Both the position numbers and the translations under genes were made by a program. From positions 3,164-67,163 of the forward strand of contig CAYHVI010000001.1 of assembly GCA_964359655.1 (NCBI GenBank): a DNA stretch of 64,000 bases, in the 5' to 3' direction. Positions 2,640 to 60,891 of the stretch are shown piece by piece. The notes beneath the pieces were generated by a model. That model was not told the DNA's origin, made no database searches, and was given only the letters and a program-made list of their open reading frames with translations. This DNA comes from an uncultured Candidatus Saccharibacteria bacterium (GTDB taxonomy: Bacteria; Patescibacteriota; Minisyncoccia; Minisyncoccales; UBA10102). Position 1 is the first letter of the stretch. The number at the start of each line of letters is the position of its first letter.

Positions 2640-3548
2640 TCACACTCCCCTAAGATTAAACAGAGTTTGCGCATTCTTTGTCGTTGCACAGGCGACTTCT
2701 TTAGAATTCACTTTTTTGATGCGCGCGATTTCTTGGGCAATATACTTTACAAAGATTGGTTCGTTTCGCTCTTTTTCCGCTTGCGCAGGCACTAAATAAG
2801 GCGAATCTGTTTCCAGAACAATGCGATCCAAGGGAATAGATGCGATTACTTCTTCTGGTTTTGGCAATGCAGGAACATTCTTGAAAATCAAACCGTTAAA
2901 CCCAAGATACAAACCAAGACCCATAAACTTTTGCGCCTGCTCTACGGTCCCGGTAAAACAATGTATAACGCCACGCAAGGGTGTAGTTTTTAGTTTATAG
3001 TTTGTAGTTAGTAGTTCAAGTAAGTCTTCGTGGGCAACTCGGCAATGGAGAATAACAGGAAGGTTTAATCCATCTGCCAAATCCATTTGCTTTTGCAAAG
3101 TTTCTTTTTGTTTTTGCTTAATTTCCTCTCGTTTTGCTTTGCTCTTTGGGAAATAATAATAATCGAGTCCGATCTCGCCTATCGCAACCACCTTTTTACT
3201 CTTTGCAAGTTCTTTGTATTTCTCGTAATCAAATTCTTCTGATCGAGTCTCAAATGTCATCCAATTCGCAGAATTGCCCTGAGCTTGTCGAAGGGCTTCC
3301 GAATCTTCGGATTGAACCTCCAGTACATCAACCTTTCGCTGTTCTCCAAGATGAATCGGGTGCAATCCAACTGCGCTATACACCCCCTCTTTATATTGTT
3401 CTGCAATTTCAACTGCGCGCTTGGACGTGGAGTACTGCGAGCCTGGCATTATCACCCAAATATCGTTTTCCAGCACGCGTTTCAGCACTTCATCTGAATC
3501 ATTTTTGAACGCATTAAAATTCAAATGACAATGAGTATCGATCAACAT
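2640..3548 (-). CDS. tatD: TatD-family metal-dependent hydrolase/DNase, with a low-complexity internal insertion
   Basis: MLIDTHCHLNF… N-terminus plus …GLHPIH… and …AIGEIGLDYYY… TatD motifs. I take the start as the internal Met at 3546-3548, to avoid overlap with metG. It carries an extra segment …ELLTTNYKLKTTPLRG… encoded by a GTAGTTTGTAGTT-type repeat. Confidence 0.8.
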   Translation of the reverse strand: MLIDTHCHLNFNAFKNDSDEVLKRVLENDIWVIMPGSQYSTSKRAVEIAEQYKEGVYSAVGLHPIHLGEQRKVDVLEVQSEDSEALRQAQGNSANWMTFETRSEEFDYEKYKELAKSKKVVAIGEIGLDYYYFPKSKAKREEIKQKQKETLQKQMDLADGLNLPVILHCRVAHEDLLELLTTNYKLKTTPLRGVIHCFTGTVEQAQKFMGLGLYLGFNGLIFKNVPALPKPEEVIASIPLDRIVLETDSPYLVPAQAEKERNEPIFVKYIAQEIARIKKVNSKEVACATTKNAQTLFNLRGV

Positions 3549-8089: not shown

Positions 8090-10852
8090 CTAGGATTTAA
8101 CTTTTTTATAAGCTTCCATGATACAAAAATTCGTGACCATAGTGAGGCCGTAATCTTGCGCAAACCTTTCTGCTTCTGGGGTATTCACGCCTTCAGCCAG
8201 CCAAACAGTTTTAATATTTCCCCGCTCTACCACGTCTTTCATACATCCTACTACTGCTTCGGGTTTTCTAAAAATATCCACAATATCAATGTGTATAGTT
8301 TTAGGGATTGCCAAAAGGCTTGGATACGCCTTTTCTCCCAGCACCTCTTGAATATTGGGATTCACAGGAATAATGCGGTAGCCCTTTTCTTGGAAATACT
8401 TTGCCACGATATGGCTATGGCGTTCTGGCTTATCCGACAAACCAATAACCGCGATGGTTCTCGCATTTTTCAGAATATCTCCATGCTTGATATCTTGCGG
8501 TGTAACCGTAACAGGAGACACGCCTTCCCATTGCCAGTCCGTAAGTTCTGGAGGGTCTTCTCCAAACTTTATAATGTACGCGGTGTGTCCTTTGAGAATT
8601 TTGTGGTATGCCGCAACCAAAACGTTTTTCCTTTCTTCTGAAACCACGCCTTCTTTTGCGGCAGTCTCAACAATTTCAATGGCAAGGTGGTAACGATCCG
8701 CTTCATTCCGAACAAGCATGTCAAAAGGCGTAGTTGTCCCTCCCTTCTCTTGGTAACCATGCACTGAAAAACGCTGCGGATTTTTGACATTAAAAAGCAC
8801 TGCTTTCAAGACTTCTGGATAGCCGTGAAAATTTACAATCACTGGCTTGTCGAACGTAAAGTATTTTTCTGCATGGGGGATTTGCGCATGGAATGCGTTT
8901 TCGCAAGAACATGCCGCTTGCAACCGCATGATGTTGACAAAACGAAGACGGATTGATGGCTGATCCTTTTTTACCAGCGCAAGTGCAGCCAATGCTTCTT
9001 TGCTCACATAATCTCCCACGCCCGCAAGAACAATATGAGGATTTTTATCACTGGTAAAATCCCAAATTTGAATGCCGTCTTGGAGCGCTTTTTTTGCCTG
9101 CGAAAAGGTCAGCCAGCGCGGCTCGGGTGTTTTTCCAACCACGACAACATTCATCTGGTTCTTGGAGCTAAGCGTTTCTTCCATTACCGCAAGCATGCTG
9201 TTGTCGTCAACCGGAAAATAGACTTTGATAAAATCGTTGTGTTTTTCCAGCATACCCGAAATAAAACTGGGGTTCTGGTGAGAATATCCATTGCGTTCTT
9301 GTCTCCAGACTGTAGATGTTAGCAAATAGTTTAGAGATGGAATGTCCAGTCGCCAAGGCACAACCCGTGCATATTTTAAAAACTTTTGGTACATATGCGC
9401 CATGCTGGAGAAAATCTGGGCAAAAGCTTCGTAGGTTGTAACGACCGCATGTCTGCCGGAAAGAATATATCCTTGGGCAAGCCCATGCATATTGAGTTCA
9501 GAAAGCATCTCCATAACCCGTCCATCTCTCGCAATATCTTTGTCTGATGAAAAATACGGCCAAACAAATGCACGGGAAGTTACCTGAAAAACATCGTCAA
9601 GCCGGTTGGAGTAAGTCTCGTCGGGAGACATTAAGCGAAAATTCCTCTGCCTTTTATTCAGCACAAAGACTTTCTTCAAGTAAGATCCCGCCGTTCTCAT
9701 GGCATTTGATTGCATTTCTCCTGGCGCGACAATCTCCTTGGCGAACTTTTCAACCTTTGGCAAGACAAGGGGCTTTACGGTTTTACCGAACACATGGGGA
9801 TTATTCCCCATAAGAAGGCTCTCTTCCGGTATAACAGACAATGTGTCTTTGGCAAAACCTTTCTTCTTATCAAACAATTCTCCAAAATGATATGATTTCA
9901 TCCACCCCTCAAGCGCGTGTAATTCCTGTTCGTCGCCCCGCACCGTGGGCATAACAACTTGGTGCGCTAAAATCGTTCCTTCAATTTGTTGCCCGCGTAA
10001 TTCTTTGACCGTGGTCCACCCTTTAGGGGTTTGGAGAATAATCATTGGGAAACGCGGCCGAAACGGAGCATTCAGTTTTCTTGCGTTGCGCTGGATTTTC
10101 TTGATGCGCTGGTAACAAGTTTCGAGAGTTTTGAGCATTTTTTCATCGATTCTTGGAGCCGCTACAAACAATGGTTCATATCCGTATCCTGAAAAAAGTT
10201 CTTTTAATTCGCGATTGCTCATTCTGCCAAAAATTGATGGTCCGGAAATTTTATAGCCGTTGAGGTGCAGAATTGGTAAAACCGCGCCGTTGGTTGCAGG
10301 ATCAATCAATTTGTTAATATGCCAAGCAGTCGCTATGGCTCCTGTTTCTGCCTCGCCGTCACCTATTAAGCAGACTGCGAGTAAGTCCGGATTGTCTAAA
10401 ATTGCGCCATAAGCAGAAGCAAGCGAATATCCCAGCTCTCCGCCTTCCAGAATAAGTCCCGGGATTTCCGGACTGCAATGACTGGAAAAACCATAGGGCC
10501 AGGTAAACATCTTGGAAATATATGCAATTCCTTCGGCATTACGCGCCGCCTTCTTATAATACTTTCCGAGCGTGCCCTCCAAAAACAAGTTAGCCTGCAA
10601 TCCCGGCATACCATGTCCTGGCCCAAGGACAAAAATAGCTGATTGCTTGTGTTTTTTGACTAAATAATGTAAGTGTCCATACACAAAGTTAATGCCAGGG
10701 CAGGTCCCCCAGTGGCCAGAAAGTTTTGGCTTGATATCTTCCGCTCTCAATGGCCGCTCAAGGAGAAAATTGTCTTGCAAATAAATCTGCGCAACAGTTA
10801 CATAATTCGCTGCGCGTATGTATTTATTGATGTTATCTAAAATTTTATTCAT
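8090..10852 (-). CDS. xfp: Xylulose-5-P/fructose-6-P phosphoketolase fused to a C-terminal CoA-binding (YccU/CoA_binding_2-like) domain
   Basis: …KYIRAANY…IYLQDN… N-terminus, a GHWGTCPG motif and a TPP-binding GDGE motif. The C-terminal ~140 aa (…[36 protein letters not shown]…VDIFRK…) matches a CoA-binding Rossmann domain. I take the start at the internal Met (ATG at 10850-10852), which sits downstream of the rsmI terminator. Confidence 0.85.
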
Positions 10853-11153: not shown

Positions 11154-11828
11154 TCATGTAAAATTAATCACGATAACAAATTCGCCCTTTAGCTCACCTT
11201 TCTTGATTTCATCAATAACTTCAGAAATAGTTCCTCGATGCACTGTTTCGAATTTTTTGGTGAGCTCGCGGCCTACTACGGTTTGTAGTTGGTAGTTTGT
11301 AGTTTTTAGCTCGTGCAAAGTTTTCATAATACGATAGGGAGATTCGTAGAGAATAACAGGATATTTCGACTGCGCAATTTCTTCAAAAAACTTTTTGCGA
11401 CCTTTCTTTGCGGGCGGAAATCCAAGGAACAAAAAGCGATCCATCGGAAACCCTGCGATGCTTGCAATCGTCGTGAGTGCAGAGACGCCTGGAATTGGCA
11501 CAATCCTTACTGTTTGAAGCCCGGCTTCAAACACGCGGGAAACAAGCTCGTTGCCGGGGTCTGAAATTCCTGGAGTGCCGGCATCGCAAACCAACGCAAG
11601 GTTTTTCCCTTCTTTCAAGAGCTCAATAATGTGTTCAACTTTCTCAAGCCTGCTATGCTGATGATAACTTATCAACGGCTTGTCAATCTGATAATGCGAA
11701 AGGAGTTTTTTTGTTACCCTTGTGTCTTCGCACAAGATAAAATCAACCTCCTTGAGGATGCGGAGGGCGCGCAGAGTGATGTCTTTAAGATTGCCGATGG
11801 GAGTCGCGACAATATACAAAGTGCTCAT
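11154..11828 (-). CDS. rsmI: 16S rRNA (cytidine1402-2'-O)-methyltransferase
   Basis: …LYIVATPIGNLKDITLRALRILKEVDFILCEDTRVT… tetrapyrrole-methylase-fold N-terminus. It contains the in-frame repeat insert …LKTTNYQLQT…. Confidence 0.85.
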   Translation of the reverse strand: MSTLYIVATPIGNLKDITLRALRILKEVDFILCEDTRVTKKLLSHYQIDKPLISYHQHSRLEKVEHIIELLKEGKNLALVCDAGTPGISDPGNELVSRVFEAGLQTVRIVPIPGVSALTTIASIAGFPMDRFLFLGFPPAKKGRKKFFEEIAQSKYPVILYESPYRIMKTLHELKTTNYQLQTVVGRELTKKFETVHRGTISEVIDEIKKGELKGEFVIVINFT

Positions 11829-18457: not shown

Positions 18458-19081
18458 TCAATTTTGCAGAACCTTTGAAAGATGCTCTTGCGATATGGTG
18501 CGCAAAAGAGTTTCATTTATACCTTGAGTATCAATATTTTGCAAGGATTCAATGTTGCTCTCCAAAAACATCCCAATGAATTCGGCAATTCTCGCGTCTT
18601 TGGCAGCAATCTGCTCTAAAGAAGGCGCATATCCTGCATAAGAAAGAAGGTTCCAAAGGAAATAATAAGCAAGGATCTTCAAATCGTGACTCTCTAGTCT
18701 CGAACGGTTCAGAAAAGAAAGTGTCCCTTTGAGCAAATTCCAAATCTTTTCGTCCCGCTCTTGGCCTTTGATGAGTTCATCGGTAACTTCTGCAAATCTT
18801 TGCATTGCGCGCATACGCTCAAAGCTATTGCGTAACAAAGGATACCGTTCTACAAGAGTGGCGTCGGTAATGGTTTTGCGCGCTTTCCCCTGAATAAATT
18901 CTAGCTCTGAAAGATAAAAAAGCTCCAAGCCTCCGCGAAGTTTGGAAGTAATCTTGCGCTCTGAAATTGCCTGCAATTTTAGTTTGCCAAAATCTTTTGT
19001 AAAAACCGTAAACAGCCGATCTGCCTCCCCTCTATCCTGCTTTTTTAAAATAATCCCTTGTGTCCTGTAATGCACCGTCAT
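18458..19081 (-). CDS. recO: DNA repair protein RecO (short form)
   Basis: OB-fold N-terminus (…GIILKKQDRGEADRLFTVFT…) followed by a helical domain. Confidence 0.65.
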   Translation of the reverse strand: MTVHYRTQGIILKKQDRGEADRLFTVFTKDFGKLKLQAISERKITSKLRGGLELFYLSELEFIQGKARKTITDATLVERYPLLRNSFERMRAMQRFAEVTDELIKGQERDEKIWNLLKGTLSFLNRSRLESHDLKILAYYFLWNLLSYAGYAPSLEQIAAKDARIAEFIGMFLESNIESLQNIDTQGINETLLRTISQEHLSKVLQN

Positions 19082-22000
19082 TATTTTCGGATGGCGAGAC
19101 GGAGAGTTTGGCCTTCTAATGAGAACTCTTCTTCTACATCAAACGTTTGCTCTGACCGATCGCCCTCGCGCATTTCTTTCAACCCAACTTGAGACATAAT
19201 TGCTTTTTCATTTTCTTGCAGAATTTCTTTCAGTTCTTCTGCGCCCGTGTAGCGCAAACGTATTCTGTCTTGCGGCTTGTACCCTGCCTGCTTTCTCATT
19301 TCCTGGATATGGCGCATTATCTCGCGCAATGTTCCTTCTCTTTGCAATACGGGAGTAATGGTGGTATCGAGTTCTACCCCTTCTTTCGCGTTCGGATCGA
19401 CCAGAACCTCTTTTACATTAAGTTCATCCTTTATCAAATCCAGCAATTCTTTCGTCATTTTTAATTTTTCACTTTTAATTTTGAATTTTTGGAGCGGCTG
19501 TCTCACTTTTATTCCGACCTTCGCCCGTTCTGCCAATCCTTCTGCAACCAGCTTGCGAACTTGCATCATTTTTTTCTCGAGCTCTGCGTCAATTTTTTTT
19601 GAATCTGCTTTGGGCCAATTTTGCCAATGTACACTTCCCCTGCCCCCAAGTTCACCATAGATATACTCGCTCAAAAACGGGATGAGTGGCGCGGTCAACT
19701 TGCTGACTTCCAAAAGTACGCATCTTAAAACGCCTCTGGCTTCCTGAAGCTCTTTTTTGCTCTTGGGGTTTTGGGAACGTTGTCGAGAACGTCGAATATA
19801 CCACAAAGAGAGATCGTCGATCACAAAACTTTCGAGCACGCGCGCAGTTCCTGTGATGTCGTATTCATCAAACCTTTTGGTTGCCTCTCTTGTTATGGAG
19901 TGGATTCTCGAAATAATCCACTTATCTAAGATATTTTTTGTTTTGAGGTTTTGGGTTTTAGGGTTTGCTTGAGCATTGAGTCTTGAGGTTTGGGATTTTT
20001 TATATGTTTGGTAGAACACAAAAGAGTTCCACAACGTCAAAATAAATTTGCGCATTGTTTGCTGCAAATCTTTTTCCGCAAATAGTTTGGAATCCCACGG
20101 CTGGTTCAATGTATAAAAATACCAGCGAAGCGTGTCCACTCCATACTTTGCAATCATATCCCAAGGATTTACCACATTTCCTTTGGACTTGGACATTTTC
20201 TCGCCTTTCTCATCAAGCAAATGCCCCAAAGAAATTACGTTTTTGTATGGCGCTTTCAAGCCCAACGCCGTAGCCACAGCCAAAAGCGTATAAAACCATC
20301 CGCGTGTTTGGTCGATTGCTTCGCAAATATAATCTGCGGGGTAACCTTCCACGCCAGAAGCAAACGGCATGGAGCCTGAATCAAACCATACATCCACGAC
20401 GTCTTTTACGCGTTTCATTTGCCCTTTGCCACATTTTCCGCACTGAAATTCGATCGCATCAATGTACGGCCTGTGCAAATCAAGTTCCATATCTTCGTTC
20501 ATGGGAAGCCTCGCGAAAGCTACACGTCTTAACTCTCCTGGTTCAACTGCTTTTTTTTCGCGGAACTGCACGAATTTTTCTCGCGACATTCCCTTCATCG
20601 TTTTCTCCAACAAAGAAAGAGGTATCTCATGACTTACCAAAACAATGCGTTTCCCTTGATACTTTTTTTCTATTGCGGCTAGCAAATCAAACACGCGCTT
20701 TTCAACATCGACCCAATTCTCTCCCTGCGGCGGCCGTTCCACAAATCTACGCAGATAATGCTCCTGGATCGTTTCTCCTTCTTTTCTAAAGTATGCTCCA
20801 AACTCACGAATGTGCTTTCCATTGAAAATGCCTACATTAAGTTCTCGTAGCCGCGCATCGTAGATAATTTGCGCGCCAAGTTTTTTCCCAATGATTTCGG
20901 CAGTTTGTTTCGTTCGCAAAAGATCGGATGAAAAAATCAAATCAATGTTTTTGCGCAACAGACCTTCTGCGATTTTTGTAATTTGTTTCACTCCCTTGGG
21001 CGTCAAAGGAAACGGATCCGCCTCAGGATACGAACCCAAAATCCCCGTTACTTGACGCATAGAATGGCCGTGCCGCAAAAGATAGTACGTGTTTCCCGAA
21101 GTTCTTTGTTTTTTGAGATCGTCCAGAGAACCTATGACTTCCAAATGATCGCACGAACTGCACTCCCACACAGGTAAAGGAGTACCCCAGTACCGTTCTC
21201 TCGAAAACGCCCAGTCTTTCACCTCGGCCAACCATTCACCCATCCTGCCTACTTTCATATGGCTCGGAATCCAATTAATCTGTTGGTTATTCGAAATGAG
21301 ATCTTTTTTAATCTTCTGCATATTCACAAACCAGCTTTCTTTTGCGTAATACAGCAAAGGAGTCGAACACCTCCAGCAAAAAGGATATTCGTGTTCATAC
21401 AACTCTTCTTTGAACAAAAGATTTCTTTGCTTTAAATCTTCAACAATCAGAGGTTCTGCTTCTTTCACGAATACTCCTTGCCATTGAGGCACTAATTCGT
21501 TGAACTTTCCTTCTTCGTCTACCGTATGCCTTTTGGGAAGATTTAGTTTTTGCCCGAGCTTGTAATCGTCTTCTCCGTACATCACCGCAGTGTGCACAAC
21601 TCCTGTTCCTTCCTGCGTAGAAACAAAATCCGCCAGTGCCACATAATGTTTTTTCTCTGGCTGGCTTTTGAGAGAATCAAAAAGCGGTTCATATTCTATA
21701 CCTTCAAGGTTTTTTCCTGAAACTTCTTTGAGAATTTCGTAATCTCCCTGAAGAATCTTTAGAAGATCTTTGGCAAGAATATATATTTCTTCTCCTTGTT
21801 TTACTGCGACATACGAGATATTTTCCCCTACCGCAAGAGCGACGTTCCCAGGCAGTGTCCACGGTGTTGTTGTCCACGCCAACAAAAACAATTTTGAATT
21901 TTGAATTTTGAATTTTGAAATTGTTTCGGATTTCGAATTTCGGATTTCGAATTTCACAAAGACGGTTCTGTCTTTGACCGTCTTGTACCCTTGCGCCAAT

Positions 22001-22596
22001 TCATGCGACGACAAAGGAGTCCCACAACGCGGACAATAAGGCACCACTTTGTAATCTTTATATAACAATCCTTTCTTCCAAAACTGCTGGATAATCCACC
22101 ATAGACTCTCCATATAATTCTTCTCATAGGTGATGTACGGATTATCGATGTCTAACCAAAAACCTATGCGCTCTGTAAGTTCATCCCATTCTCTTTTATA
22201 TTCCCATACCGACTGTTTGCATTCTTTATTGAATTTTGCGATCCCGTATTGCTCAATTTCTTTTTTGGACTTTAATCCAAGTTTTTTCTCAACCTGCAAC
22301 TCTACGGGCAGACCGTGAGTATCCCAGCCAGCTTTTCTGCCAACGTAAAATCCCCGCATTGTTTTGTAGCGGCATATTACGTCTTTAAAAACCCGCGAAA
22401 GAACATGATGAATTCCGGGACTTCCGTTTGCCGTGGGAGGGCCTTCAAAAAATACAAAACGAGGAGAGCGCTTTCTCCTCTCAAGAGATTTTTCAAACGT
22501 TTTCTGCTCTTTCCACCGCTTCAGTATCTGCTCTTCCAACTTCGAAAAATCAGCTTCCATGCTCTTTAGAATACTACGTTTTGCATACCTTTTCAA
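19081..22596 (-). CDS. ileS: Isoleucine--tRNA ligase with an inserted histidine-phosphatase (PGAM-like) domain and two in-frame repeat insertions
   Basis: HIGH-type signature (…PTANGSPGIHHV…), KMSKS (KMSKSKGN), and editing and anticodon-binding domains. Residues ~498-703 (nt ~20488-21105) form a histidine-phosphatase domain (…YYLLRHGHS… plus …VLVSHE…). It sits between the conserved …YWGTPLPVWEC… and …HRPYID…WFDSG… segments. Confidence 0.9.
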   Translation of the reverse strand: MKRYAKRSILKSMEADFSKLEEQILKRWKEQKTFEKSLERRKRSPRFVFFEGPPTANGSPGIHHVLSRVFKDVICRYKTMRGFYVGRKAGWDTHGLPVELQVEKKLGLKSKKEIEQYGIAKFNKECKQSVWEYKREWDELTERIGFWLDIDNPYITYEKNYMESLWWIIQQFWKKGLLYKDYKVVPYCPRCGTPLSSHELAQGYKTVKDRTVFVKFEIRNSKSETISKFKIQNSKLFLLAWTTTPWTLPGNVALAVGENISYVAVKQGEEIYILAKDLLKILQGDYEILKEVSGKNLEGIEYEPLFDSLKSQPEKKHYVALADFVSTQEGTGVVHTAVMYGEDDYKLGQKLNLPKRHTVDEEGKFNELVPQWQGVFVKEAEPLIVEDLKQRNLLFKEELYEHEYPFCWRCSTPLLYYAKESWFVNMQKIKKDLISNNQQINWIPSHMKVGRMGEWLAEVKDWAFSRERYWGTPLPVWECSSCDHLEVIGSLDDLKKQRTSGNTYYLLRHGHSMRQVTGILGSYPEADPFPLTPKGVKQITKIAEGLLRKNIDLIFSSDLLRTKQTAEIIGKKLGAQIIYDARLRELNVGIFNGKHIREFGAYFRKEGETIQEHYLRRFVERPPQGENWVDVEKRVFDLLAAIEKKYQGKRIVLVSHEIPLSLLEKTMKGMSREKFVQFREKKAVEPGELRRVAFARLPMNEDMELDLHRPYIDAIEFQCGKCGKGQMKRVKDVVDVWFDSGSMPFASGVEGYPADYICEAIDQTRGWFYTLLAVATALGLKAPYKNVISLGHLLDEKGEKMSKSKGNVVNPWDMIAKYGVDTLRWYFYTLNQPWDSKLFAEKDLQQTMRKFILTLWNSFVFYQTYKKSQTSRLNAQANPKTQNLKTKNILDKWIISRIHSITREATKRFDEYDITGTARVLESFVIDDLSLWYIRRSRQRSQNPKSKKELQEARGVLRCVLLEVSKLTAPLIPFLSEYIYGELGGRGSVHWQNWPKADSKKIDAELEKKMMQVRKLVAEGLAERAKVGIKVRQPLQKFKIKSEKLKMTKELLDLIKDELNVKEVLVDPNAKEGVELDTTITPVLQREGTLREIMRHIQEMRKQAGYKPQDRIRLRYTGAEELKEILQENEKAIMSQVGLKEMREGDRSEQTFDVEEEFSLEGQTLRLAIRK

Positions 22597-29099: not shown

Positions 29100-30824
29100 C
29101 TATGGAAGCATCGCAAGCATTTTCTCTGCAGAAAGAGTGTTAATAATATCTTTCTTTTCTGCCCAACCGCGCTTGGCTTGCGCAATACCGTACTTCAAAC
29201 ATCCAAAATGATCTTGAGCATGGGCGTCAGAATCAATAGTCATCTTGCACCCTGCCTCTACGGCCTTTTTAATATTGCTGTCTTTTAAATCTAAACGATC
29301 CGGAAACGCGTTAATCTCTAGAATTGTTCCTGTTTTCTTTACTTCCCTTATAATTTCGTCCATATCAACCTCATACGCCTCCCTCTTATGAATAAGACGG
29401 CCGGTTGGGTGGAACAAGATATCAACATTGGGATTTCGCATGGCTTTCACTATTCTTGCGGTCATATCTTTTTTCGTCATCTTAAAACTCGAGTGCACAG
29501 CAATTCCTACCACATCGAGCCTTGAAAGAACTTCGTCTGTAATATCGAGTGTCCCGTCTTTTCGAATATTCACTTCCGCTCCTTTCAGTATCTTAAATTT
29601 CGAATTTCGAAATTCGGATTTCGAATTTATTTTGTCGATCTCTCGCATCTGCGCCAGCAGTTTTTTCTCGTCCATGCCTCCAGTCATCGCAAGATCTCGT
29701 GTGTGATCAGTTATTGCAATATACTCCAATCCCTGTTTCTTTGCCTCTTTTGCCATAGCTTCTATCGAGTCTTTACCATCGGTCCAGTTTGTCTGCACTT
29801 GCAAGTCTCCTTTCAACGAATCATACGGAATAACGCTTGGAAGTTTTCCTTCAAGGGCACAATCTATTTCTCCTTGATCTTCCCGCAGCTCTGGCTCAAT
29901 ATATTCCATTCCTAATGCTTTGTACACATCTTGTTCGGTTTTGCAGGCAATGCGTTTTTCCCCCCGAAACAATCCATATTCTGAAAGCTTATATCCCTTA
30001 TTTGCAGCACGTGTTCGCAACCTCACATTGTGCTCTTTTGATCCTGTAAAATATTGAAGTCCTGCTCCAAACACCTCTTGCCGCAGAACGCGCATATCAA
30101 TGTCGAACCCTTCGGTAGTGCGCAAAGAAACCTTGGTTGATCCTTTCCCCCAAATTTTTTCATACGAAACCAAGGAAAGAAAATACTCGACTGCTTTTTC
30201 CGGCTTGCTCGTGGTAATCAAGATATCCACATCGCCGATCGTTTCTTTCATTCGCCTGATCGAGCCTGCTGCAACCGCCCGCGTAATCAATGGAGAATCC
30301 TCCAGCCGCGCAACCAAATCTTCTTGATAAGGATAGATGTTGCCGAGGAGCCATCTTCCCTTCGAGCGTTTTACAAAATCAATGCCCTGCAGAATATTTT
30401 GCTCTGTTTTTTCGCCAAAGTTGGGAAGCTTTCGCACCTTGCCTGCTTTGGCCGCTTTTTCCAAATCATCGAGGGTTTTGATTTTCAGATGCTTATACAA
30501 ATCGCGCACCATTTTAGGCCCTACTCCCTCAATAGAAGTAAGCTCTTGAATGTCAACCGGAAATTTCTTCCGGAGTTTTTCATGCTCTTGGATTTCTCCT
30601 GTTTTAATGTACTCTTCGGTTTTCTCTGCTATGCTCTTCCCAACTCCCGGAATCTGTTCTAATCCCCGCAACCCTTCTCTCTCGTATATTTTTTCTACGC
30701 CTTCTGACAGAGATTCTATGGCATTTGCTGCTCTGACATATGCCTGCGGCTTGAAAGGCACACTGTCGATCTCCAGATACAAAGCAATATTCGAAAAGAG
30801 AGAGGCTAATTTTTTATTGGTCAT
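29100..30824 (-). CDS. polX: Family X DNA polymerase with C-terminal PHP domain (PolX)
   Basis: Pol-beta-like N-terminal HhH/fingers/palm (…GVGKSIAEK…, …GSIRRMKETIGDVDILI…) and a C-terminal PHP domain (…HTRDL…, …DSDAHA…). It contains the in-frame repeat insert …INSKSEFRNSKFKI…. Confidence 0.85.
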   Translation of the reverse strand: MTNKKLASLFSNIALYLEIDSVPFKPQAYVRAANAIESLSEGVEKIYEREGLRGLEQIPGVGKSIAEKTEEYIKTGEIQEHEKLRKKFPVDIQELTSIEGVGPKMVRDLYKHLKIKTLDDLEKAAKAGKVRKLPNFGEKTEQNILQGIDFVKRSKGRWLLGNIYPYQEDLVARLEDSPLITRAVAAGSIRRMKETIGDVDILITTSKPEKAVEYFLSLVSYEKIWGKGSTKVSLRTTEGFDIDMRVLRQEVFGAGLQYFTGSKEHNVRLRTRAANKGYKLSEYGLFRGEKRIACKTEQDVYKALGMEYIEPELREDQGEIDCALEGKLPSVIPYDSLKGDLQVQTNWTDGKDSIEAMAKEAKKQGLEYIAITDHTRDLAMTGGMDEKKLLAQMREIDKINSKSEFRNSKFKILKGAEVNIRKDGTLDITDEVLSRLDVVGIAVHSSFKMTKKDMTARIVKAMRNPNVDILFHPTGRLIHKREAYEVDMDEIIREVKKTGTILEINAFPDRLDLKDSNIKKAVEAGCKMTIDSDAHAQDHFGCLKYGIAQAKRGWAEKKDIINTLSAEKMLAMLP

Positions 30825-47545: not shown

Positions 47546-48865
47546 TCAAATTTTTGTAAATTCTTCCTCAACTACTTTGCGTTCATCCCATGGAATTTTT
47601 TTACCTCCAGCTATTGCAATTGCGTCTTCCGAACCCTTGCCGCTTATCACCACCACGTCGCCTTCTCGCGCCAAAGACAATGCTCTACGAATCGCCTCTC
47701 GTCTATCAATAATTTTCAATAAATCTTGAGCTTTGAGCTTTGAGCTTTGAGCTTGAGAAACTCCAGAAGCAATTTGCTCGATGATTGCTTCTGGGTTTTC
47801 GTCATAGGGATCTTCATTGGTCAAAACAATAGTGTCGCAATACGAGGAAGCGATTTTGCCCAATAGAGGACGCTTCCATTTGTCGCGGCCGCCTCCGCAC
47901 GCTCCAAATACGCAAATAAGCTTTTTTGGCTCGAACAAACGTCGCACCCCAGCGTATAAATTTTCCAGCGCCTTTGGAGTAACCGCGTAATCAATCAATA
48001 CGCAAAACGGTTGGGTAATCACGGGCTCGGTTCTGCCCGGCATCCTCGGCATTTTCGCCAAAGCAGATTGGCACACTTCCATAGAAATTCCATGCGCCAA
48101 TCCCACGCATGTTGCAGCTAATGCATTGTACGCGTTAAATTGCCCAATAAGATTCAAGTGAAAAGCTACTCCATTGATGAAAAAATTCGTGCCCTCTTTT
48201 GTTTCTCGCACGTCGCTTCCGACAAATGTTTGGGTTTTAGGATTTGGGATTTGATTGAGATTTGAGGTTTGGGGTTTTGGATTTACTCCATACATGTATG
48301 TTTCGTTTGCGGGAATCTGAAAAAAATATGCCGCGTTTTCGTCATCCCCATTGACTACATGGAGTTTTTTGGCAGTAAAAAACAGCTTTTGTTTTTCTGC
48401 CCGATATTTTTCAAAAGAGCCATGCCGCTCAATATGCTCGGGCGACAAATTGGTGATTACTGCAGTGTGGAAATTCAAAAATCGGTGGCGATGCTGCAAA
48501 ATTCCTTCAGAGCTCACCTCGATGATTGCATGCGTACATCCCTCGAGCAGAGCTTGTGCCAAGAATTTTTGCAAAAACATTCTACCTGGCATTCCCATTT
48601 TCAACGTGTTTTTCCACTTTTTTTCTCCTATTTGAAACCACACCGAAGAAGTCGAACAAGTCTTATGCCCTGCTTCTTTGAAAATCCGTGTAATCATTTC
48701 CGTAGTGGTGGACTTGCCATCTGTACCAGTTATGCCAACTACAGTGAGTTTCCTCGCGGGAAACCCGTACATCACAGCGCCCGAAAACGCCCACAAAAAA
48801 TGATACCAGCTCAAGGCAAATCTCGGGACAGACCTCTGCAAAAGATTCTTTGCTCTTGCCATCAT
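47546..48865 (-). CDS. murE: Mur ligase family protein (MurE/MurF-like), with two in-frame repeat insertions
   Basis: Mur-ligase P-loop GITGTDGKSTT, a central domain and a C-terminal domain (…DYAVTP…). It carries …NPKPQTSNLNQIPNPKTQT… and …QAQSSKLKAQ… low-complexity inserts. Confidence 0.7.
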   Translation of the reverse strand: MMARAKNLLQRSVPRFALSWYHFLWAFSGAVMYGFPARKLTVVGITGTDGKSTTTEMITRIFKEAGHKTCSTSSVWFQIGEKKWKNTLKMGMPGRMFLQKFLAQALLEGCTHAIIEVSSEGILQHRHRFLNFHTAVITNLSPEHIERHGSFEKYRAEKQKLFFTAKKLHVVNGDDENAAYFFQIPANETYMYGVNPKPQTSNLNQIPNPKTQTFVGSDVRETKEGTNFFINGVAFHLNLIGQFNAYNALAATCVGLAHGISMEVCQSALAKMPRMPGRTEPVITQPFCVLIDYAVTPKALENLYAGVRRLFEPKKLICVFGACGGGRDKWKRPLLGKIASSYCDTIVLTNEDPYDENPEAIIEQIASGVSQAQSSKLKAQDLLKIIDRREAIRRALSLAREGDVVVISGKGSEDAIAIAGGKKIPWDERKVVEEEFTKI

Positions 48866-58789: not shown

Positions 58790-59215
58790 CTACCCGTTTT
58801 CGATATTTACCATGTAGGTTTCGAGAAATTTCTGGATTGCCTGAATGGTTGCATCTTTCACTTTTGGATTACTTTGAGCAACCCAAACTGCAAAATTGTA
58901 CAGTTCTTGGTTATCCAGCTTGATCCATTTTTTGTTTTTATACAAAAGAAAGAGAAGTGTTGTAACAGCAATGCGTTTGTTCCCATTTTGAAAAGGGTGA
59001 TTTTTAATCATCAAGTAAAAAAGAACAGAGGCTTTTGCTACAAGCCCTTTATACGCCGCTTTCCCACTAAACGATTGAAATGGGGCGCCAAGACAACTTT
59101 CAAGAACATTTGGAAATCGAGTAGAAAAATCGGGAATGGGTTCATCCCATGCCATCGATTCTTGTGCCAATCGGTGAGCAACATATTCAACCTCTTGAAC
59201 CATCAATTGCTTCAT
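58790..59215 (-). CDS. doc: Doc-family (Fic-fold) toxin
   Basis: Doc motif HPFQNGNKR (H-x-F-x-N-G-N-K-R). 141 aa. Its start overlaps the upstream HTH gene by 4 nt. Confidence 0.75.
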   Translation of the reverse strand: MKQLMVQEVEYVAHRLAQESMAWDEPIPDFSTRFPNVLESCLGAPFQSFSGKAAYKGLVAKASVLFYLMIKNHPFQNGNKRIAVTTLLFLLYKNKKWIKLDNQELYNFAVWVAQSNPKVKDATIQAIQKFLETYMVNIENG

Positions 59216-59466
59216 TCTCTTCCCAAAAGTCGGAGTGCTTCCCCATATTCATGCACCGTCTTCTCTACCGCTTCGGCAATAACCCTTTTCCCGTCTTTGG
59301 TAAGCTGTCCACTTATTTCAACGGGGAGATCGGCTTTTCTAATAATATAATTACGCCCAATTTTTTGAGCTTTAATCTCTCCCGACTTAATCTTCTTGAA
59401 AATCGCTATACGGCTAACCCTAAGGAGCTTTGCAACTTCGCTTGTAGTGAAAATATCCTTTCCCAT
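59212..59466 (-). CDS. HTH (MerR/excisionase-like) DNA-binding protein, putative antitoxin for Doc
   Basis: …FTTSEVAKLLRVSRIAIFKKIKSGEIKAQKIGRNYIIRKADL… 84 aa with an ATGA overlap to doc. Confidence 0.6.
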   Translation of the reverse strand: MGKDIFTTSEVAKLLRVSRIAIFKKIKSGEIKAQKIGRNYIIRKADLPVEISGQLTKDGKRVIAEAVEKTVHEYGEALRLLGRE

Positions 59467-59538: not shown

Positions 59539-60042
59539 CTACAAAAAAGAAATTCTACGTTCGTTTTCTTTTGTGATTTCAAAAGAGATGGAAACTGTGT
59601 CTTTTGGAAGGATTTTTTGTATTCGCTCTGGCCATTCAATGAGGATTAAATTTTGAGGGTCGGACACAATCTTGTCCCATCCGAGCGAAAGAAGATCTTG
59701 TTCGTCTTTGATTCGGTAGCAATCAATGTGATACAAACACCCAAAATCCGAATATCGAATATCGAAATTCGAAACGTGTTTGGCTTTTCGTTTTGTTTCG
59801 GATTTCGTGCTTCGGATTTCGTATTTTTTGATAATAACAAATGTGGGAGAAAGAATTTTTTCTTGAATACCCAAACCTCGAGCAAATCCTTGTACAAAGG
59901 TAGTTTTTCCGCTACCTAAATTGCCCTTTAACCCAACGACAAGTGCATCTTTACACTTTCTATGATGCTCAAGTATATCGCAAGCAAACTTTCCTGCAAA
60001 ATGTTGTGTTTCTTTCGCAGAGGAACTTAAAAGAGTCTTCAT
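59539..60042 (-). CDS. tsaE: tRNA threonylcarbamoyladenosine biosynthesis protein TsaE, with in-frame repeat insertion
   Basis: P-loop GNLGSGKTTF and a …LYHIDCYRI… motif. The ~25-aa insert …EIRSTKSETKRKAKHVSNFDIRYSDFG… is encoded by TCGGATTTCG-type repeats. Confidence 0.8.
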   Translation of the reverse strand: MKTLLSSSAKETQHFAGKFACDILEHHRKCKDALVVGLKGNLGSGKTTFVQGFARGLGIQEKILSPTFVIIKKYEIRSTKSETKRKAKHVSNFDIRYSDFGCLYHIDCYRIKDEQDLLSLGWDKIVSDPQNLILIEWPERIQKILPKDTVSISFEITKENERRISFL

Positions 60043-60093: not shown

Positions 60094-60891
60094 ATGAATG
60101 TAGCGCAGCTTCTTGAAAAATCAAAAACTATTTCTCTTGTTCTTCCTTTTGGAGCTCAACAAAGCGACACGCAAACAGCATTTTTGCTTGCGTGTGGTTT
60201 GAAGAAACTCGGCAAGCAGGTTTCTATTGAACATATCCAAACACCTCTCTTGGCCTCCTCTTTGAAAGAAAAAACTTTTGTTGTTTCTCTCAAGGGGCTT
60301 GCTCCCTGGATTGCGAGAGTGCGCTATGAAAAGGATGCCCAGGATCTTAAGCTTTATTTTACCTTAAACCAAGGAGAAGTTTCTCCAGAAGCTCTTTCTT
60401 TTCAAATGCAGGACCAAGCAGATCTTACTATTATTGTAGGAGATAAAGCTCTCCAAAACAATAACAGCCAACCCTTATCTGCGACCGTGCTTTCAGCAAG
60501 TGAAACGAAAGAACCGTTGCTCAACCTTCTTTGCTCTCAAGAAAACCCGCAGACAAAACTTTTGGGAGCAATCTTATCAAACCTCGAATACATTTCTCAT
60601 TTAGATACCCACCTTACTATTCTCCGTCAGGAAAATCTCCGGAACATACGCGTAGAATCGAAAAACCTTCCTCTTTTAGTCCCTGAATTACGAGAAAGTT
60701 TTGGTGATCAATGCTCATATCTTTTCCTTCTTGGCTCTCTTTTGGGGGCACAGGGCGTTCTATGGAGTCCTTCACCACAACTTAGAGCAAAGGTTCGCGA
60801 TATTGCCGGAGGGCAACAAAAAGGACCTTGGGTTCTCCTCCATCCCACTCCTTTATCAAGTGAACAACTTAAATATGCCTTCCTCTCCTAA
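60094..60891 (+). CDS. Hypothetical protein (265 aa), possibly degenerate DHH-like
   Basis: ORF. The N-terminal pattern loosely recalls NrnA-like proteins but lacks the DHH motif. Confidence 0.3.
   Translation: MNVAQLLEKSKTISLVLPFGAQQSDTQTAFLLACGLKKLGKQVSIEHIQTPLLASSLKEKTFVVSLKGLAPWIARVRYEKDAQDLKLYFTLNQGEVSPEALSFQMQDQADLTIIVGDKALQNNNSQPLSATVLSASETKEPLLNLLCSQENPQTKLLGAILSNLEYISHLDTHLTILRQENLRNIRVESKNLPLLVPELRESFGDQCSYLFLLGSLLGAQGVLWSPSPQLRAKVRDIAGGQQKGPWVLLHPTPLSSEQLKYAFLS

Follow-up and report, generated by a model that had tools for sequence, protein, structure and literature searches.

The 64,000-nt stretch of DNA analysed here (the window), from a metagenome-assembled genome (MAG) of Patescibacteria in Hainich groundwater, carries tandem arrays of 7-nt units inside three housekeeping genes, ileS, polX and tsaE. 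Our analysis revealed that these arrays belong to one repeat family, which we call family B: the tsaE site is a complete mini-hairpin, the ileS site is a 5′ arm, and the polX site is a short fragment. We hold with moderate confidence that all three are copies of a dispersed, non-coding palindromic family with arms phased at 7 nt. The host genes were verified through Pfam and PDB matches, and the sites are as follows.

19081–22596, minus strand: ileS, isoleucyl-tRNA synthetase (the ATG start at 22560 gives the 1159-residue form)
21886–21963, minus strand: ileS copy, 5′ arm only (Tandem Repeats Finder, sequence reading, hidden Markov model)
21928–21955, minus strand: GAAATYC ×4 sub-array of the ileS copy (exact GAAATYCGAAATYC matches)
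21893–21920, minus strand: AAAATTC ×4 sub-array of the ileS copy (unit a rotation of TTCAAAA)
29100–30824, minus strand: polX, family X DNA polymerase with PHP domain
29589–29628, minus strand: polX copy, short fragment (Tandem Repeats Finder, hidden Markov model)
59539–60042, minus strand: tsaE; the insert is residues 76–101, between strands 71–75 and 102–107
59795–59829, minus strand: tsaE copy, 5′ arm in gene sense (sequence reading, hidden Markov model)
59776–59794, minus strand: tsaE copy, 19-nt loop
59743–59775, minus strand: tsaE copy, 3′ arm in gene sense (sequence reading, hidden Markov model)

Architecture of the family-B copies

The tsaE copy is an inverted pair of arrays. Its 5′ arm reads AAAAAATAC GAAATCC GAAGCAC GAAATCC GAAAC and encodes (K)KYEIRSTKSET, and its 3′ arm reads GTTTC GAATTTC GATATTC GATATTC GGATTTT and encodes VSNFDIRYSDF. 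Tandem Repeats Finder recovered the two as separate period-7 arrays (59743–59774 and 59796–59826; 2 × 4.4 copies). The sense strand of the ileS copy is (GAAATTC GAAATCC)×2 - GAAAC - AATTTC - (AAAATTC)×4, with period 7 and 9.9 copies at 21890–21955, and its product is KFEIRNSKSETISKFKIQNSKL (IleS residues ~213–237). That of the polX copy is AAATTC GAAATCC GAATTTC GAAATTC GAAATTT, with period 7 and 4.7 copies at 29596–29628. An initial annotation of the DNA had placed arrays in these three genes, and both sequence reading and Tandem Repeats Finder found all three there; the sites were right, except that the family-B match in ileS extends to 21963. The arrays are exactly in frame, as had been claimed, and the peptides quoted at that time are exact: FEIRNSKSETISKFKIQNSKL is IleS residues 216–236 (21889–21951), NSKSEFRNSKFKI is PolX residues 400–412 (29589–29627) in the PHP domain, and YEIRSTKSETKRKAKHVSNFDIRYSDF is TsaE residues 74–100 (59743–59823).

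Copies outside the window were collected from metagenomes by a pattern scan with GAAATYCGAAATYCGAAAC, anchored by an exact 19-mer, which matched at least 120 contigs; taxonomy was assigned for few of them, and the figures for these copies here and below are among the matches listed. A left-arm hidden Markov model (HMM) of 87 positions, trained on the metagenome copies exclusively, matched ileS (21896–21963, E 3.8e-14, model positions 7–74 of 87, i.e. 68 positions), polX (29597–29626, E 5.9e-6), the tsaE 5′ arm (59796–59822, minus strand, E 4.6e-5) and the tsaE 3′ arm (59743–59774, plus strand, E 2.8e-3), and nowhere else in the window below E 0.1. That one model matches all three sites bears out the view that they form a single family. 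The pattern is not due to chance, since GAAATYCGAAATYC with at most 2 mismatches matched the window 20 times against 4.9 ± 2.3 in shuffled sequences, and 0 of 100 shuffles reached 20.

We surveyed the window together with 80 related Patescibacteria loci (81 sequences, 1.33 Mb). GAAATYC pairs and their flanks in the 80 loci follow a common plan, (GAAATYC)n-GAAAC, loop, GTTTC-(GRATTTC)n, at unrelated places: intergenically in two Staskawiczbacteria MAGs, in the TsaE gene of another MAG, and in ileS and tsaE of the window. The 5′ side of family B is AAATCC - GAAGCAC or GAATATC - (GAAATYC)n - GAAAC - AAATTC - AAAATTC, and the 3′ side is GTTTC - (GRATTTC)n - GTGCTTC or GATATTC - GGATTT. Typical full metagenome copies are near-perfect hairpins with a conserved outer stem and a variable interior, and they lie mostly outside long open reading frames (ORFs). 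The left outer stem is AAATCC GAAGCAC GAAATCC GAAATYC GAAAC AAATTC AAAT GACCAAAA, and the right outer stem is TTTGTTTC GGATTTC GTGCTTC GGATTT.

Of the 117 listed copies, 57 are followed within 300 nt by a complementary arm; none has one upstream, and shuffled sequences never have one. In 57/117 the outer 33 nt are conserved and complementary, like the terminal inverted repeats of miniature inverted-repeat transposable elements (MITEs). Strict hairpins among these matches span 79–289 nt (median 148). Their inner stems are only ~55% identical between copies and show a 7-nt periodicity peak, with 51% of bases in left–right pairs versus 18% in shuffles. Perfect pairing of left GAAATCC with right GAATTTC arms requires G–U wobbles and is confined to one strand. 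An A-run and a T-run border many copies, as in bidirectional terminators.

The window copies share irregular details with this family. GAAGCAC of the tsaE 5′ arm is the commonest variant unit at its position (29 of 122 metagenome copies among the matches listed). In the 3′ arm, GATATTC corresponds by reverse complementation to GAATATC, which ranks fourth among the variant units of the same matches. The ileS copy contains the family junction GAAAC-AA(A)TTC-AAAATTC. A sliding fold scan of the window found ordinary GC-rich terminator-like hairpins only, with no full intergenic family-B copy. An Rfam search with nine full copies matched no family, giving only sub-threshold generic hairpin matches to miRNA precursor models.

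All three arrays lie in loops between conserved segments, as had been proposed at first reading and as structure alignments of the three proteins and a TsaE model indicate. Against PDB TsaE chains, the window protein aligns in two blocks, and ~22–24 residues (75–98) are unmatched where those chains have 1–2. An AlphaFold2 model built with 30 homologues has a mean predicted local distance difference test score (pLDDT) of 88; the insert (residues 76–101) scores 53–58 and sits between adjacent strands, so that the model predicts a floppy loop upon an otherwise confident fold. The IleS array is flanked by the conserved …VFVKF and LLAWTTTPWT segments and adds 7–12 residues relative to solved IleS structures (~12 relative to the usual 25–26-residue state of the segment). 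The PolX array mostly substitutes for an existing loop: the segment has 32 residues in the window versus 28 in the usual state, a net gain of 4 only. The net gain is thus large in TsaE (+22–24 residues), moderate in IleS (+7 to +12) and small in PolX (+4), which corrects the uniform description of the three as insertions.

Two observations on these proteins stand apart from the repeats. Residues 505–679 of IleS (window 20560–21084) form a complete histidine-phosphatase domain (PGAM-type, His_Phos_1, E 1.8e-33) inserted in the catalytic core region and unrelated to the heptamers. A coiled-coil reading of the 7-residue period was rejected, since the hydrophobic positions of EIRNSKF and KIQNSKF do not have a/d spacing.

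Distribution in genes, genomes and orthologous loops

In a scan of periods 4–12, the window held 7 arrays of period 7 and 0 of each other period. Across the 81 sequences, with equal numbers of compared positions, period 7 gave 67 arrays, period 14 gave 15 and the others at most 10, against 0–1 in shuffled sequences. A second count, using a 28-nt criterion, gave 114 arrays: 66 inside ORFs, 26 wholly outside and 22 straddling ORF ends, where the ORFs, called by a simple longest-ORF heuristic that is unreliable on GC-rich contigs, cover 88% of bases. Hence the 12% of bases not in ORFs hold, wholly or in part, 48/114 arrays (42%), i.e. arrays are ~5 times denser outside. The initial suggestion that the repeats specifically colonise coding DNA while preserving its frame does not stand against this enrichment, a kind of outcome that the annotation itself had named as refuting, even though all arrays found in the window itself lie within ORFs.

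Coding and non-coding arrays also differ in form. An inverted partner array within 150 nt accompanies 21 of 48 non-coding arrays versus 6 of 66 coding arrays, and coding arrays are A-rich on the sense strand by 48:17. The A-rich arm encodes hydrophilic peptides, and the T-rich arm, usually missing in genes, encodes peptides rich in F, I and L. The minus strand, on which the A-rich arms lie, is probably the leading strand in the window, since the cumulative GC skew of the plus strand falls steadily to −2827 across the 64 kb and nearly all genes are on the minus strand. Arrays of one locus resemble each other: an exact 11-mer is common to 7.5% of same-locus array pairs versus 2.7% across loci, a value reached by 14 of 5000 permutations. 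This comparison supersedes a weak and noisy test of consensus-unit distance (12.9% versus 8.4%, p ~0.03).

Other heptamer families also occur in frame in the window (2981–3018, 11280–11312, 47720–47758, 48229–48284, 19940–19967 and 19457–19490). A TatD DNase and a TP_methylase-family protein contain AAACTAC (peptide TTNYKLQ), a Mur ligase contains AGCTCAA and CCCAAAT-like arrays, and the C-terminal part of IleS contains TCAAAAC and TAAAAAT arrays.

Metagenome hosts of family B are diverse, with the GC content of listed contigs ranging from 0.30 to 0.68. Patescibacteria hosts include Portnoybacteria (in ValRS), Staskawiczbacteria and others; a further named host is the MAG “Deltaproteobacteria bacterium SM23_61”, and a protein on one more contig clusters with a Thermodesulfobacteriota protein. 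Many copies in AT-rich contigs lie in frame within housekeeping genes. On low-GC contigs, 14 of the 16 listed copies have the left arm only, and for 8 of the 16 the surrounding sense ORF has 150 residues or more. In-frame hosts recognised by Pfam or direct reading are ValRS, LeuRS, IleS, a class II (ProRS-like) synthetase, GatA, MiaA, TsaD, SecA, an ATP-dependent DNA ligase, a 6PGD-like dehydrogenase, a glycosyltransferase and the adenylation (A) domains of nonribosomal peptide synthetases (NRPS). The last carry the whole hairpin, which indicates that both arms are translatable. In two contigs of GC 0.42 (L088 and L101), the complete in-frame hairpin sits between VLL and a 16-residue motif of the NRPS A-domains. 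One LeuRS (L183, 294–3323) has two family-B inserts, two others of heptamer type and, as judged by eye, a NUDIX-like motif (GGIEKGESPAEAARREVFEETGY) in one segment, which would make it the second aminoacyl-tRNA synthetase seen here with a whole extra domain.

The genes around the copies point to a non-autonomous element. When the 2,342 ORFs within 2.5 kb of 120 listed copies were clustered, the largest family occurred in 6 loci, so no neighbouring protein recurs in more than 6 of the 120. Searching 72,556 plasmids with a full copy by blastn gave no match, in a search where the low-complexity filter may mask matches. The pattern was carried by 20 of 2.9 million predicted viral contigs, which gives no sign of a phage vehicle.

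The same loops vary among relatives. The TsaE loop is enlarged in 100 of the 120 closest homologues (the nearest named relative is a Wildermuthbacteria MAG, at 56% identity), and its extremes are KKYGTLYHID, the minimal form, and low-complexity inserts of 30 residues, among them KIQNSKF, YKIQNTRYKIQ, EIRNTKSETNSKFKIQNSKF and EVRSTKKRRKKTSELQTSDFRLY. In the DNA of 61 genome loci, long TsaE loops are heptamer arrays of many different units, and in several genomes the loop DNA is instead a GC-rich perfect palindrome (e.g. GAAGGCGACATTCGCGAATGTCGCCTTC and TCCGCCAGCTGGCGGA; L038, L056, L018 and L054, at ~10190–10290 of each locus). Long TsaE loops fold at z ≤ −2 on either strand in 11 of 21 cases versus 0 of 21 control segments from the same genes. 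Hairpins of whatever sequence seem to land or to be created repeatedly in this TsaE loop. IleS and PolX loops are likewise variable among Patescibacteria relatives (KFKIQNSKFKN in IleS, NSKFKIQNSKFKILKG in PolX). Since the orthologous loops of all three proteins are hypervariable, running from a minimal turn to 30-residue inserts with other repeat units, the inserts are not ancient conserved peptides; on this point, the view taken at the outset held.

Length variation was sought in six assemblies from replicate samples of one well, which are 99.6–100% identical to the window and contain zero gaps, arrays included. These assemblies are the consensus of one population, and look-ups of this kind retrieve identical proteins by design; less biased checks of length are L225, found via IleS and spanning polX, and L223, found via PolX and reaching the ileS array. 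The agreement of six independent assemblies excludes an assembly artefact. It lends nothing to the earlier description of the repeat as expansion-prone.

Origin and persistence of the copies

The mobility of family B is suggested by its scattered distribution and by shared irregular units in the sequences. GAAGCAC, GATATTC and the GAAAC-AA(A)TTC-AAAATTC junction are common to the window and to unrelated copies, and independent local expansion would not reproduce them. Under the mechanism that we propose, copies would reach new sites through copying of some kind, e.g. trans-acting transposition, ectopic template switching or array recombination. They would then drift through point mutation and 7-nt slippage, with arm-to-arm template switching maintaining complementarity. 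Template switching at quasi-palindromes is an established process in general, and together with 7-nt slippage it would account for both array growth and kept complementarity. Slippage has been proposed for heptanucleotide repeats by Mrazek et al. 2007, at least as relayed in PMC4679880.

Within genes, only a filtered subset of copies would persist, in which the added length is a multiple of three bases. Since a tandem 7-mer is read in all three frames, only units that are stop-free in the given orientation persist. The surviving copy would usually be an A-rich, stop-free arm yielding peptides rich in K, N, S, E, I and R (EIRNSKF, KIQNSKF), placed in a length-tolerant loop between two β-strands or helices. 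It would be carried as a neutral disordered surface loop on an enzyme that stays functional. Because arrays are so much denser outside ORFs, frame preservation is most likely a filter imposed by purifying selection rather than a property of the element. The best-supported account of the A-rich orientation and of the location in loops is likewise that they are the residue of purifying selection.

Several points weigh against a dispersed mobile family. K-F-K-I (AAATTCAAAATT) is native at all three sites and constitutes a 7-nt proto-repeat, so local growth could account for a portion of each array, above all in polX. By-eye inspection of the flanks of listed copies gave no consistent target duplication. 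Neither a transposase nor a pair of filled and empty sites was identified, no transposase search having been made in the source genome, of which 64 kb is covered here. The tsaE copy folds at −22.8 kcal/mol in the sense orientation (z −1.6) and −26.2 kcal/mol in antisense (z −2.3), and the z-scores of the window copies are modest, the best being this −2.3. Anchoring by an exact 19-mer and the use of listed matches inflate the apparent sequence conservation. Furthermore, SEIRNPKSET occupies the same alignment position in the anticodon-binding region of two ValRS that are 44% identical, one from Portnoybacteria (L194, GC 0.38) and one on a contig of GC 0.58 (L099). This shared site fits poorly with neutral random insertion and hints at targeting or function; possible causes are independent insertions at a single permissive position, targeting and gene transfer.

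The main rival is local growth without mobility, which we consider unlikely as a full explanation, though it probably has a share, above all in polX. Where the genome is AT-rich and poor in repair, K-F-K-I/N codons (AAA TTC AAA ATT) would act as 7-nt proto-microsatellites that replication slippage expands, and template switching would add inverted arms; similar units would be convergent, since few heptamers are stop-free in all three frames. The base state of the PolX loop, …NKKLSGIKILKG, and its repeat state, …NSKFKIQNSKFKILKG, both end in KILKG and are only 4 residues apart. The TsaE and IleS loops of relatives carry many different units at the same site, and roughly half the long TsaE loops consist of palindromic DNA whose sequence is unrelated and may even be GC-rich, as local template switching would produce. 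Heptanucleotide repeats are, moreover, the commonest long simple repeats of 5–11-nt units in most prokaryotic genomes, again as relayed for Mrazek et al. 2007, with the proposed slippage, in PMC4679880. However, local growth leaves unexplained why GAAGCAC, GATATTC, the GAAAC-AAATTC junction and the order of sub-arrays recur across genes and phyla. Nor does it explain the 3-fold within-locus sharing of units or the identical AT-rich copies on contigs of 60–68% GC.

Function at the nucleic-acid level is a further candidate, to which we assign a rather low probability. Family B would then be a binding platform (an OB-fold or cold-shock protein per heptamer), a bidirectional terminator, or a signal for mRNA stability or translation pausing, and genic copies would be kept for that role. 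Conservation of the outer stem across very different contig GC and at least two phyla (among the matches listed), the inner stems that diverge yet stay paired, the A-run and T-run flanks, and perfect pairing with G–U wobbles on one strand only all speak for it, as does the ValRS site occupied in two distant lineages. CspB is reported to bind heptamer repeats with one protein per heptamer, and a post-transcriptional role has been proposed for TAACTGA repeats (PMC4679880). In contrast, no Rfam family matches, and the listed copies have no consistent position relative to any gene family. Genic copies often retain one arm, as in the 14 of 16 on low-GC contigs, which destroys the hairpin, and the better-pairing strand is antisense to the gene in tsaE and ileS. 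Quasi-palindrome template switching can, in addition, keep complementarity mechanically.

A bolder possibility, which we put forward tentatively and think unlikely, is that family B is an undescribed cross-phylum heptamer-phased hairpin, either actively mobile with a site preference, as the shared ValRS position would suggest, or a conserved binding platform for one protein per 7 nt on the G–U-pairing strand, used by cells both in genes and between them. If so, the in-frame copies that Patescibacteria carry in aminoacyl-tRNA synthetases, TsaE/TsaD, SecA and ligase would be no accident but the outcome of targeting or function.

Selection at the protein level appears improbable. It would make K/N/S/E-rich heptad-periodic loops useful, e.g. 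as interaction or RNA-binding arms on tRNA-handling enzymes, with the DNA periodicity as a by-product. The hosts are indeed enriched for tRNA and translation enzymes (IleS, ValRS, LeuRS, ProRS-like, TsaE, TsaD, MiaA and GatA), the loops are lysine-rich, and ~100 of 120 TsaE homologues have an enlarged loop. Yet selection on peptides cannot yield a 7-nt DNA period that reads all three frames, and such DNA is also frequent in intergenic positions. Disorder is predicted for the loop, its sequences are hypervariable among close relatives, and essential conserved genes are simply those recognisable in a pattern search. Finally, although a change of a single 7-nt unit shifts the frame, switching of genes by phase-variable slippage in a unit not divisible by three is highly improbable, given imperfect arrays, single-copy essential hosts (IleS, PolX and TsaE) and six replicate assemblies with up to 0.4% divergence and no indel.

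Relation to known repeats and other features of the window

Heptanucleotide repeats of the STRR type were reportedly described in cyanobacteria by Mazel and colleagues in 1990. Nostoc PCC 7120 carries (TTCAAAA)3–4 and GAC(C/T)AAT heptamer repeats (bioRxiv 10.1101/2022.06.06.494920), and the family-B unit AAAATTC is a rotation of the former. TAACTGA repeats occur in Beggiatoaceae, Cyanobacteria and Bacteroidetes, are mostly intergenic, and are rare and peripheral in ORFs; their distribution suggested horizontal spread, with no known mechanism (PMC4679880). Like these, family B consists of tandem 7-nt units in at least 3 copies, with period 7 favoured over other periods. We count as further likenesses that the known repeats are many per genome and often just upstream of start codons, that they are distributed patchily across phyla, and that they occasionally reside in ORFs in a stop-free orientation. 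The known repeats are also mostly intergenic; the arrays surveyed here show such a bias in the relatives but not in the window. Family B differs in that its arrays are phased arms of a long hairpin with a conserved order of irregular units, and in its host phylum, Patescibacteria. Whereas TAACTGA repeats are found at protein ends and in hypothetical ORFs, family-B copies lie deep inside essential enzymes, in internal loops. Family B is thus a hairpin-forming relative of the cyanobacterial and Beggiatoaceae heptanucleotide repeats.

The Rickettsia palindromic elements (RPEs) are said, after Ogata and colleagues in 2000, to lie in frame in housekeeping genes. They reportedly measure 100–150 bp, are not known outside one genus and are not tandem heptamers; no sequence relation to family B is expected. 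RPEs and family B are alike in being palindromic, in their in-frame insertion into housekeeping genes at surface positions, in a peptide that looks functionless, and in occurring also in non-coding DNA. The descriptions set them apart, since family B spans phyla, is often a single arm in genes, and has hosts in Patescibacteria, not Rickettsia. An in-frame hairpin repeat at a tolerated position, the mark of an RPE, is found in tsaE; the ileS and polX copies are single-arm or fragmentary. The initial annotation had compared the arrays with RPEs but set them apart as tandem direct repeats. The comparison fits better than was supposed, given a palindromic family with an entire hairpin in tsaE, and the restriction to direct repeats was wrong for the inverted pair in tsaE.

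Small dispersed repeats of Nostoc were reportedly catalogued by Elhai and colleagues in 2008. These, together with REPINs/REP-RAYT systems (PMC3116915) and MITEs, resemble family B in being short, non-autonomous and hairpin-forming; their outer arms are conserved, and none has its own gene close by. REPs are species-specific, whereas family B keeps its sequence across distant hosts. In contrast to REPINs and MITEs, family B yielded neither a RAYT or other transposase nor a target duplication or doublet structure in the 64 kb of the source genome and the short contigs covered. Tandem repeats inside ORFs of Borgs are said to have unit lengths divisible by three and to be perfect, recent and local. 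They are like family B in that repeats at the DNA level appear in ORFs as low-complexity disordered segments, but family B has a 7-nt unit, imperfect arrays and a dispersed distribution.

In the literature, we found no published mention of the GAAATYC unit, and no paper on heptamer repeats of Patescibacteria or Parcubacteria or on the exact DNA and peptide strings, within an incomplete coverage. Heptanucleotide repeats have so far been reported chiefly as intergenic oddities of cyanobacteria and giant sulfur bacteria. Family B joins them with in-frame palindromic elements and extends both to Patescibacteria. It adds a defined hairpin architecture with conserved unit order, hosts in at least two distant phyla, and in-frame residence in core translation and repair enzymes of ultra-small Patescibacteria. 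A kind of repeat that is usually intergenic can therefore persist inside essential proteins as a floppy surface loop, and family B offers a concrete sequence family for testing how such repeats spread. It also provides a DNA-level explanation for some of the low-complexity loop insertions that give Patescibacteria proteins their unusual look. Such loops are to be expected in annotation and structure prediction, and should be masked in phylogenies of these proteins.

Some further features of the window were observed. Directly downstream of tsaE is a gene pair, HTH_17 and Fic (58790–59466), and a 265-residue ORF without a Pfam match lies upstream on the opposite strand (60094–60891). The gene for anthranilate synthase component I (833–2305) is probably of foreign origin, since its GC content is 0.615 in a window of GC 0.448.

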